NCBI GenBank assembly: GCA_965218295.1
Contig: CBDCKN010000017.1
Span: 32,001 to 96,000, forward strand
Origin: Longimicrobiales bacterium
GTDB lineage: Bacteria > Gemmatimonadota > Gemmatimonadetes > Longimicrobiales > Gaopeijiaceae
DNA length: 64,000 bases
Reading direction: 5' to 3'
Shown here: positions 16,731 through 59,983 of the stretch, piece by piece
Position numbering within the stretch: position 1 is the stretch's first letter
How the letters are laid out: each line of letters begins with the position of its first letter
The notes under the pieces: model-generated
Seen by the model: the letters and a program-made list of their open reading frames with translations, nothing else
Database searches by the model: none
Told to the model about the DNA's origin: nothing
Translations under genes and position numbers: made by a program

Positions 16731-16801
16731 TTGGCCCGGATGGATTCGAACCATCACCGCCGGTGCCAAAGACCGGTGTCCTGCCATTAGACGACGGGCC
16801 A
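16731..16801 (-). tRNA. tRNA-Gln (TTG); CCA not encoded
   Basis: TGGCCCGTCGTCTAATGGCAGGACACCGGTCTTTGGCACCGGCGGTGATGGTTCGAATCCATCCGGGCCAA folds as a cloverleaf with U1-A72, anticodon TTG and a GTTCGAATC T-loop. Confidence 0.97.
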
Positions 16802-25313: not shown

Positions 25314-25504
25314 CTAGTGTGGTGTCACAGAAGTTCGCGAGCCACCGAGAGTGCCGAGGCGCCGGATCCGGGGTACCCGCGCCGCTAGGCGTGGGTCGGG
25401 CGCGACGACGAGGAATAGCAACGCTATTTCAAGGAGGAGGAACGCCGCAGGGCCGGATGCATCGGTGCTCGAATGGCCGAGACACTTCTGTAACACCACA
25501 CTGG
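25314..25504. mobile_element. Structured palindromic element, family A copy 1 (MITE/REP-like)
   Basis: Terminal IR CTAGTGTGGTGTCACAGAAGT / ACTTCTGTAACACCACACTGG (19/21). Internal blocks shared with 59798..59983. Confidence 0.8.
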
Positions 25505-36810: not shown

Positions 36811-37092
36811 TTGCCAGATGTGTGCCAGAACTCCGTCTCCGGCGCGCCGCACCCGCTGAGTGGGAGCCCTCGAGATCATGTCCCCGAGGAGACGGTCCTC
36901 GCGGACCGCCTGCACGACGTCGTGTTTAACCTCATCAAAGTCGATCACGGTTGGTGGGGTGCCCAATTCATGGAACAGTACGTTCTGGGACGAGTGAGCT
37001 GGAAATCCCTGATCCGCTACGTCATCCCGCCGGTTCTTGCCTTTCTGGCCTGGGTGGCATTCCGCGACATGGTGATTACCCTCGCGGGGTGA
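36811..37092 (+). other. Short ORF or gene remnant with C-terminal TM segment
   Basis: Weak TTG start; ends WKSLIRYVIPPVLAFLAWVAF; abuts a repeat remnant. Confidence 0.3.
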
Positions 37093-37170
37093 GGTCTGTC
37101 AGCCACGTAGAACACAGCATTACGGAGCGGAGCGAAGACCGCTCAAGACGGCCGCGGCGGACTCCTCATG

Positions 37171-37210
37171 GGTGTTCCGTTGCCGAGACACTCTGGAAAC
37201 GGGACACTAT
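37171..37210. repeat. Internally deleted family A element
   Basis: GTGTTCCGTTGCCGA is identical to 59801-59815 and is joined directly to the right end GACACT...GGGACACTA. Confidence 0.75.
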
Positions 37211-53786: not shown

Positions 53787-54193
53787 GACGGTCCTGGTGG
53801 CGCAACGCACCGTCGAGCCGGAGCTCGGCCCTGGGCTGCGCTCTCCACGGCCGGCCCATGTCCCTCTGGTGGATCCCAGCGCTCGTCTCCATGCTGGCGG
53901 GAGGTTTCGCTTCACCTGGGGCCCGGACGAGGCCAACGCTCAGACGGCGACCGGGGTCAACCTCCCCGTCGTCGAGCACGAGCTCGCCAACGGCATGCGC
54001 TTCCTGGTGCTGCCCCGCCGGGGGGCTCCCACCACCTCCTTCGTCGTGCAGTACCGCGTGGGGGGCGTGAACGAGGTCCCCGGCACGACCGGCATGGTCC
54101 ATCTCCTGGAGCATCTCCTCTTCAAGGCACCAGCACACCGGGCACCCACGACGTGGAGGCGGAGCGAGGGCGTCTCGGGTGACGGCGACGCCT
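53783..54193 (+). pseudogene. M16 (pitrilysin-family) peptidase, frameshifted and truncated
   Basis: EHELANGMRFLVLPR...VGGVNE...HLLEHLLFK. Frame breaks after the signal-like segment and at FKG/TST, and the gene ends at a palindromic element. Confidence 0.85.
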
Positions 54194-54469
54194 CTAGAGG
54201 CCTGTTGAAGGAGTACAGCGGGTCGCGTTAGGAGCGCCGAGGGTCCAGCGCGTAGGCGGCGCGACGACGCGATGCTGTAGTATCGGGGAGGAGCGCCAAC
54301 ACCCGCGATGGGCCCTCGCCGCCCTAACCCGAAGGGCACAGGAGGGTTGCGGTCTCATAGGTCGTCTCTCCTCCTCGCCGTAGCCCTGCTACGACTCGTC
54401 GTCGTTCCTACTCTGAGCCTCGCAAGACCCCTGTGCGCGACCCACTGTACTCCTTCAACAGGCCTCGAG
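54194..54469. mobile_element. Structured palindromic element, family B (MITE/BIME-like)
   Basis: 31-bp terminal IR GAGGCCTGTTGAAGGAGTACAGCGGGTCGCG (54197-54227 / 54436-54466, 30/31), CTAG at the left end, two internal hairpin arms. Confidence 0.85.
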
Positions 54470-54476
54470 AGAGGGA

Positions 54477-59508: not shown

Positions 59509-59742
59509 ATGATCGGTACACTGCTGACCTTCTTCGCCGTCGGACTGGTCACCCAGGTCGTCGCCGGGATCACGCTGTCGATCTTGGGGACGGTCCTGTC
59601 GCTGGGGCTCGGCCTCGCCGCCTTCCTGCTCTTCAAGGTGGCGCCCATCCTTCTAGTCGGGTGGGTGGTGCTCAAGATCATCGACAAGCGGAAGGGTGGC
59701 AGCCTGTCGGCCGCCGACCGTCGCTGGCTGGAAGGCGAATAA
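59509..59742 (+). CDS. Small membrane protein (LiaI-like size and hydropathy)
   Basis: AGGAG SD; 77 aa, hydrophobic; last gene of the ECF operon. Confidence 0.75.
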   Translation: MIGTLLTFFAVGLVTQVVAGITLSILGTVLSLGLGLAAFLLFKVAPILLVGWVVLKIIDKRKGGSLSAADRRWLEGE

Positions 59743-59797
59743 GGAGCCTGTCGGAGTAATGGGGCGAGCCGCGTTAGGAGCGCCACGGGACCAGATC

Positions 59798-59983
59798 CTA
59801 GTGTTCCGTTGCCGAAGTTCGCGAGCCACCAAGAGGGTCGGGGCGCCGTGGGATCAAGGCGGGACGACGCGGCGTAGCGCAAGCGGGCACCGCGCGAAGC
59901 GTGGTCGCAAGGAGTCCCAACGCCGAGCCCACGGATGCACCGTGCCCTCGACTGGCCGAGACACTTTGGTTAGGGGACACTAA
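59798..59983. mobile_element. Structured palindromic element, family A copy 2
   Basis: CTAGTGTTCCGTTGCCGAAGT / ACTTTGGTTAGGGGACACTAA. Shares AAGTTCGCGAGCCACC and TGGCCGAGACACTT with 25314..25504. Confidence 0.8.

Follow-up and report, generated by a model that had tools for sequence, protein, structure and literature searches.

The window, that is, the whole stretch of 64,000 nucleotides analysed here (positions 32001-96000 of contig C17 of the source genome, G000), contains at 54197-54466 a 270-bp element of repeat family B. Element B is almost certainly a gene-less MITE: it is short, carries no transposase gene, ends in inverted repeats and belongs to a multicopy family (40 B copies in four genomes). 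The reading that we favour, with some reserve, is that it is moved in trans by an IS1182-like transposase, while its interior is a portable hairpin module that aids spread or persistence. The core of this module is very probably folded and under selection. The transposition layer is ordinary; the pan-bacterial interior module with fixed geometry is apparently undescribed.

Architecture of element B and its insertion site

The left terminal inverted repeat (54197-54227, + strand), an IS1182-like end, faces the right one (54436-54466, − strand). These arms are 31 nt long with one mismatch, and they belong to the best inverted repeat of the 64-kb window (arms 54192-54227 and 54436-54471, 36 nt, 94% complementary), in keeping with the terminal repeat that the first-pass annotation had drawn around both arms. 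From left to right, the interior is formed by arm 1 (54228-54327), a long hairpin predicted on the + strand, a central 3-bp mini hairpin with a GAA loop (54328-54336, 9 nt, no strand), and arm 2 (54337-54435), another long hairpin, with its ladder on the − strand. The centre of symmetry is the mini hairpin, 137 and 136 nt from the element ends. Each arm harbours a core whose anchor begins 59 nt from the 5' end on its side of the element, the left end for core 1 and the right end for core 2. Core 1 (54254-54301, + strand) comprises an anchor, two tandem G·A steps and an apical stem, a third G·A step being swapped for Watson-Crick pairs at unchanged length. Core 2 (54363-54409, − strand) comprises an anchor, three tandem G·A steps and an apical stem. 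All strings and positions quoted at first pass were found in place, with core 1 at 54261-54294 (+), core 2 at 54368-54404 (−) and the mini hairpin between the arms. The claim that one core motif occurs twice in opposite orientations stands as to the orientations; the two cores are distinct subtypes and not identical copies.

Folding predicts, for the purine strand of each core, tandem G·A steps between single C-G rungs, with a short apical stem on top, while the opposite strand presents pyrimidine mismatches at the ladder positions. In DNA, sheared G·A pairs are stable, and so are three-base GNA loops. The DNA fold of the whole element has a z of −8.6, and none of 200 shuffles was equally stable. 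No Pfam match was found in the ORFs overlapping element B, and the single Rfam match over the window at gathering threshold is a tRNA gene (16731-16801, − strand). A further Rfam search of eight core loci, with E up to 1, returned no match to the element; in one of these loci a c-di-GMP-I riboswitch (L092:1788-1880) adjoins the core element.

Element B lies between a TA (54195-54196, + strand) and a GA (54467-54468, + strand). Its site is empty in both of two congeners (G058 and G102), which are ~95% identical there, for a net insertion of 272 bp: they have one GA where the window reads TA-element-GA, so that the left TA is missing from the empty site and the right GA equals its dinucleotide. 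A related strain (run X5) reads TA at the right flank, so that the TA and GA events may have occurred in either order. The 27 rows of B copies in G058 and G102 gave eight clean empty sites in G000, all with a +2 bp geometry and three of the eight at TA; in the remaining rows the orthologue is missing, remnants are found or the gap sizes differ. Nine B sites, element B included, thus have this geometry. Family A (40 loci) gave seven clean empty sites of the same +2 bp geometry, six of them at TA; it displays a TA target duplication together with ends that match IS630. The flanks of B copies are TA/TA in 12 of 40 cases over four genomes and in 0 of 11 in G009, those of IS1182-like elements in 27 of 27 (two false pairings set aside). 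The odd B flanks possibly mark survivors locked by a changed flank, excision scars or a carried dinucleotide. An in-frame coding role was rejected, since neither of the net insertions (163 and 272 bp) is a multiple of three.

To the left of element B (window about 53880-54166) lies a gene with an HxxEH motif, which we take to be a likely M16-type peptidase. It is long in G058 and G102; in the window ~2.67 kb is missing 28 bp from the element, and a 1-nt gap is found at 54125.

Transposon ends and the repeat population

Judged from sequence similarity, the ends quite probably belong to two unrelated DDE families, IS630 for family A and IS1182-like for family B. The ends of family A match IS630 elements of G058, G102 and other phyla. 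Of 251 genomes of the order, 25 carry IS1182-like elements. B ends share 12-16 of 20 positions with the ends of these elements, as against 9-11 of 20 with those of IS630. One B subfamily reaches 15-16 of 20, the window copy 12-13 of 20, and the transposase of the IS that best matches the window end scores 183 bits, below the IS1182 cut-off of 270 bits. Searches of G000 and G058 revealed no IS with B-type ends, and since no exact partner turned up there, the match is a likeness and not a proof. A search of G000 (90.7% complete) with PF01609, PF13358, PF01797, PF13751 and PF05598 gave zero matches; its congeners do carry such transposase families. The IS1182-like IS of the same order (L441-L470) and the IS630 elements (L394, L399, L493) resemble the MITEs in their terminal 20 bp and TA flanks; the MITEs differ in having no transposase gene, an unrelated interior and flanks that are often unduplicated.

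Of the first-pass view that the A and B termini are unrelated, the part to be amended is that a MITE end and the IS end of the other family have 9-11 of 20 positions in common. The idea of one common trans-acting mobilising protein is not supported, as the ends match IS630 (A) and IS1182-like elements (B); a shared host factor may bind the core. The IS630 and IS1182-like ends found here have the same spacing of conserved positions (1-3, 10-11 and 17-19), and this common spacing may ease end exchange. One IS1182 element has multiplied in G058 to some 45 copies, and the 15 listed are flanked by CTAG at each end. For an end type from Myxococcota (L034, G101; about 45 copies), none of the IS compared here is a match; L407, considered as an IS remnant with this end type, is a broken MITE beside a weak match. 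A derivation of the MITEs by deletion of an IS is disfavoured, as their interior is unrelated to that of these IS and no core was found in the 78 IS loci scanned (46 further IS loci lay outside the scan). Long spans between ends were also rejected as autonomous elements, since they contain host genes and no transposases.

Family A is represented in the window by a MITE at 25315-25503 (+ strand) with IS630-type ends, a single core and one extra 24-nt module. Its core (25398-25444, + strand) is of the canonical subtype seen across phyla and was located as described at first pass (25402-25440). At 59741-59982 (+ strand), the left end of a B-type element is interrupted by an inserted family A element (59799-59982). 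To note, window positions 37090-37210 contain a degenerate family A remnant that bears another purine-mismatch hairpin.

The related repeats of G000 amount to about 151 loci of two end families; internal deletions are frequent, and small hairpin modules are present in some. Numerous copies from which an internal deletion has removed the core are still multicopy, which implies that the core is not required. Among B elements of 210-495 bp (L279-L290, L309-L321), size varies through a few self-contained hairpin modules, some of them common to family A. The MITEs may themselves serve as IS targets. This is suggested by a 1.8-kb B copy (L001, C3:343834-345627), which is a B element split inside core 2 by an IS, and by IS copies that adjoin A elements in L378, L388, L484 and L007. 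The IS inside L001 is flanked by an 8-bp duplication and has a 423-aa open frame; it is presumably IS256-like.

Interiors and ends appear in new combinations. In one Thermodesulfobacteriota genome (L029, L055), nearly the same interior is found with B-type and with A-type ends, and hybrid ends are present in G000. Hybrid elements joining the ends or bodies of different subfamilies were observed at C4:12116, C12:116746, C17:1769-2022 and C17:16223-16365 of G000. The ends may instead have changed by stepwise drift and not by exchange, which is possible because the two ends align with few changes. The closest second copy to element B (C13:354076, 96.6% identical) has four differences at its end, each mirrored in the opposite arm. 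Deviations of the terminal repeats are mirrored in both arms in 11 of 12 cases in G009 and in 25 of 36 in one subfamily; in a third subfamily the signal is weak (2 of 13). Template switching between inverted arms is described as a route to mirrored arms (PMC5941160, PMC8604942).

The core across bacteria and its conservation

A strict core pattern was found in 20 of 101 genomes of the family, and its reversed control in none; with the predicted fold of element B, this exceeds what chance would give. In GTDB, searched across phyla as suggested at first pass, the strict pattern occurs at no fewer than 116 loci. Among the 80 titles of matches listed, about 12 phylum-level labels (MAG labels as deposited) are represented: Myxococcota, Planctomycetota, Spirochaetota, Desulfobacterota, Binatia, Pseudomonadota, Nitrospirota, Patescibacteria, Gemmatimonadota, Acidobacteriota, Krumholzibacteriota, Omnitrophota and Bdellovibrionota. 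The looser pattern proposed at first pass is noisy alone: it matches 38 times in the genome, and its controls match 16 times (order swapped) and 7 times (words reversed). Once filtered for hairpins, 9 of its 18 matches fall within the repeats. Plasmids and phages gave no match, and viral contigs no core pattern.

Most core loci are single hairpins of 158-165 bp. Clear ends are seen in 59 of 109 distinct copies; the core lies 59-63 nt from the left end in 58 of these, despite 42 different 14-nt end words among the 59. Six gammaproteobacterial variants (L023, L043, L061, L063, L084, L091) are 239-248 bp long and keep the core at its usual distance, but their ends lack TA and their second arm is unrelated.

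Six loci among the at least 116 are elements of 269-449 bp with a second, reversed core: L018, L024, L086 (Planctomycetota), L085 (Omnitrophota), L027 (Patescibacteria) and L110. The second cores of L018 and L024 were also found by the anchor scan described below, the other four by eye. Five of these six two-core loci of other records have a central mini hairpin, and the ends of two-core elements elsewhere differ from those of family B. A search of metagenomes for two-core elements proved too permissive, one of its 120 loci being real. First-arm and second-arm cores form separate subtypes in Gemmatimonadota, Planctomycetota and Omnitrophota, and the core 2 subtype of element B is also present in L018, L085 and L110. 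As first proposed, the hairpin is offered on either strand: family B and records from other phyla carry one per strand.

Of the core instances, 70 stem from a pattern with a fixed ladder, and the counts concern related sequences and not independent events. Outside the pattern, only 7 + 4 flanking positions, which it left free, are conserved (0.86-0.98), while the arms and ends are near background, their commonest base mostly at 0.3-0.6. The stem beneath the core is paired at 0.63, as compared to 0.31 with shuffled partners (maximum 0.34 in 500 shuffles). Mismatches on the ladder strand are more often A·G than C·T (456 vs 90), and more often G·T than A·C (355 vs 208), in 92 of 109 elements. A scan with the anchor only, which gave 10 matches in 462 kb of G000 vs 2 in a shuffle, returned 22 core types. 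Among these, the middle tandem G·A is preserved in 22 and 21, and the rungs are C-G 17, G-C 3 and T-A 1 at one position and C-G 17 and G-C 4 at the other. Rungs flip in compensating pairs, and Watson-Crick pairs of equal length can stand in for an outer step. The proposal that the purine-rich internal-loop hairpin is the functional unit is supported in so far as these compensatory rungs and the covarying stem indicate a folded unit under selection; that it is common to different end types, even within one genome, is supported as well.

Possible roles of the core and relation to known systems

In the favoured mechanism, an IS1182-like DDE transposase would read the outer 20 bp and move element B in trans, as the similarity of the ends suggests. 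The interior would consist of two copies of the portable hairpin module, whose predicted fold is confined to the purine-rich strand, and would be a module that acquires new ends and not an IS deletion product. While the element is folded, template switching would copy a new end to the opposite arm and so account for the variants mirrored in both. The ladder may serve a host factor as binding site or as structural signal at about 59 nt from the end; in a two-core element, it would be presented whichever strand is exposed. The module would help the element spread or persist while its DNA is single-stranded; to such a single-stranded-DNA role we give slightly less than an even chance. The ladder lies on the C-rich strand in 75 of 112 cases in G000 (p = 4e-4) and, by hand counts, in 35 of 59, 20 of 32 and 33 of 59 elsewhere, the bias being weaker in eight other genomes. 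A replication-strand (replichore) bias was rejected as not robust across genomes, the sampled GC skew being weak in G058.

The core may alternatively act as RNA, insertions being tolerable through transcript stability, termination or an RNA-binding protein, with the two-core form working in either orientation. The excess of G·T over A·C and the tandem G·A steps suit RNA as well as DNA, RNA folding returns the same arms as DNA folding, and full-length A copies lie between convergent genes more often than between divergent ones (14 vs 2). Motifs of single-stranded DNA and of RNA are hard to separate computationally, according to PMC5737381. Against this stand the absence of a gene-sense bias of the ladder strand among tandem neighbours in family A (39 vs 33, p = 0.56), the lack of an Rfam match and the constant distance to the transposon end, for which an RNA role gives no clear reason. 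Loops of the three-base GNA type, moreover, favour DNA. On balance, an RNA role is unlikely.

Still less probable is a functionless core hitchhiking on successful MITEs that spread across phyla. Core-less derivatives are common and MITE families amplify clonally, as this explanation would have it, but the positions next to the core are kept at 0.86-0.98 against arms and ends whose divergence approaches background, rung changes compensate one another at preserved ladder length, and two subtypes are maintained separately in three phyla.

Least of all do the data favour a REP-like core that is the substrate of one HUH (Y1/RAYT) enzyme moving all end types, a very improbable reading: it would suit a strand-specific hairpin in both orientations, the unfaithful TA duplication and the lack of a recurring neighbour gene or of a cognate IS in G000, but PF01797 (Y1/RAYT) was found in none of six genomes (controls positive in 6 of 14; completeness, where stated, 91-99%), the ends match DDE elements, and A sites are TA in six of seven with a +2 bp geometry. 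The first-pass analogy with REP/BIME is not supported by these results, and no recurrent neighbour protein was found around 126 core loci. As regards integron attC sites, the copies of the element are dispersed and lack a recurring neighbour gene. REP, BIME and REPIN elements with RAYT are alike in their strand-specific hairpins and inverted pairs; the elements described here differ by IS-type ends, a far longer unit and no Y1 transposase found in the six genomes.

The central hairpin of the Rickettsia palindromic elements (RPE) is presumably similar to the mini hairpin of element B. RPE, likened here by description, are palindromic MITE-like repeats of about 150 bp (PMC10969869). In its behaviour, element B works like a TA-targeting MITE, as far as such elements are described in PMC3184786, PMC10969869 and PMC11602168. 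ERIC (MITEEc1) and Correia elements are alike in having no genes, terminal inverted repeats, TA ends, internal deletions and added modules, and TA-targeting MITEs may fold, as is predicted for element B, into a whole-element stem-loop (PMC3184786). ERIC/MITEEc1 is classed under IS630 in PMC11602168, in which MITE clusters at 95% identity are mostly confined to a genus. In contrast to ERIC and Correia, one interior module here spans the ends of two transposase families and about 12 phyla. The bcr1 repeat of Bacillus cereus, about 155 bp long, has a cruciform-like fold preserved by compensatory changes (PMC3184786). It differs by its 5-bp direct repeats and its restriction to one group, being set apart by description and not by sequence comparison. 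In the literature searched, the core is undescribed; single families may be catalogued in ISfinder, in subscription papers or in the supplements of PMC11602168 and PMC5737381.

A bolder proposal, which we hold to be unlikely, is that the MITEs move as single strands in folded form: by folding back, the two ends would pair to give one duplex transposon end, the ladder would recruit a conserved host factor at a fixed distance, and a one-ended insertion would be finished by replication. If true, one pan-bacterial core would hijack any TA-targeting DDE transposase and swap ends freely, and the homogenised arms and the unfaithful flanks of B copies would be accounted for.

The interiors of bacterial MITEs are usually seen as leftovers of IS or as unspecific stem-loops. 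One interior of fixed geometry across about a dozen phyla and unrelated transposase families points to selection on the interior itself. A defined 47-nt target is now available for experiments, and an old question becomes testable, namely why bacterial MITEs fold back over their full length and how their two arms co-evolve.
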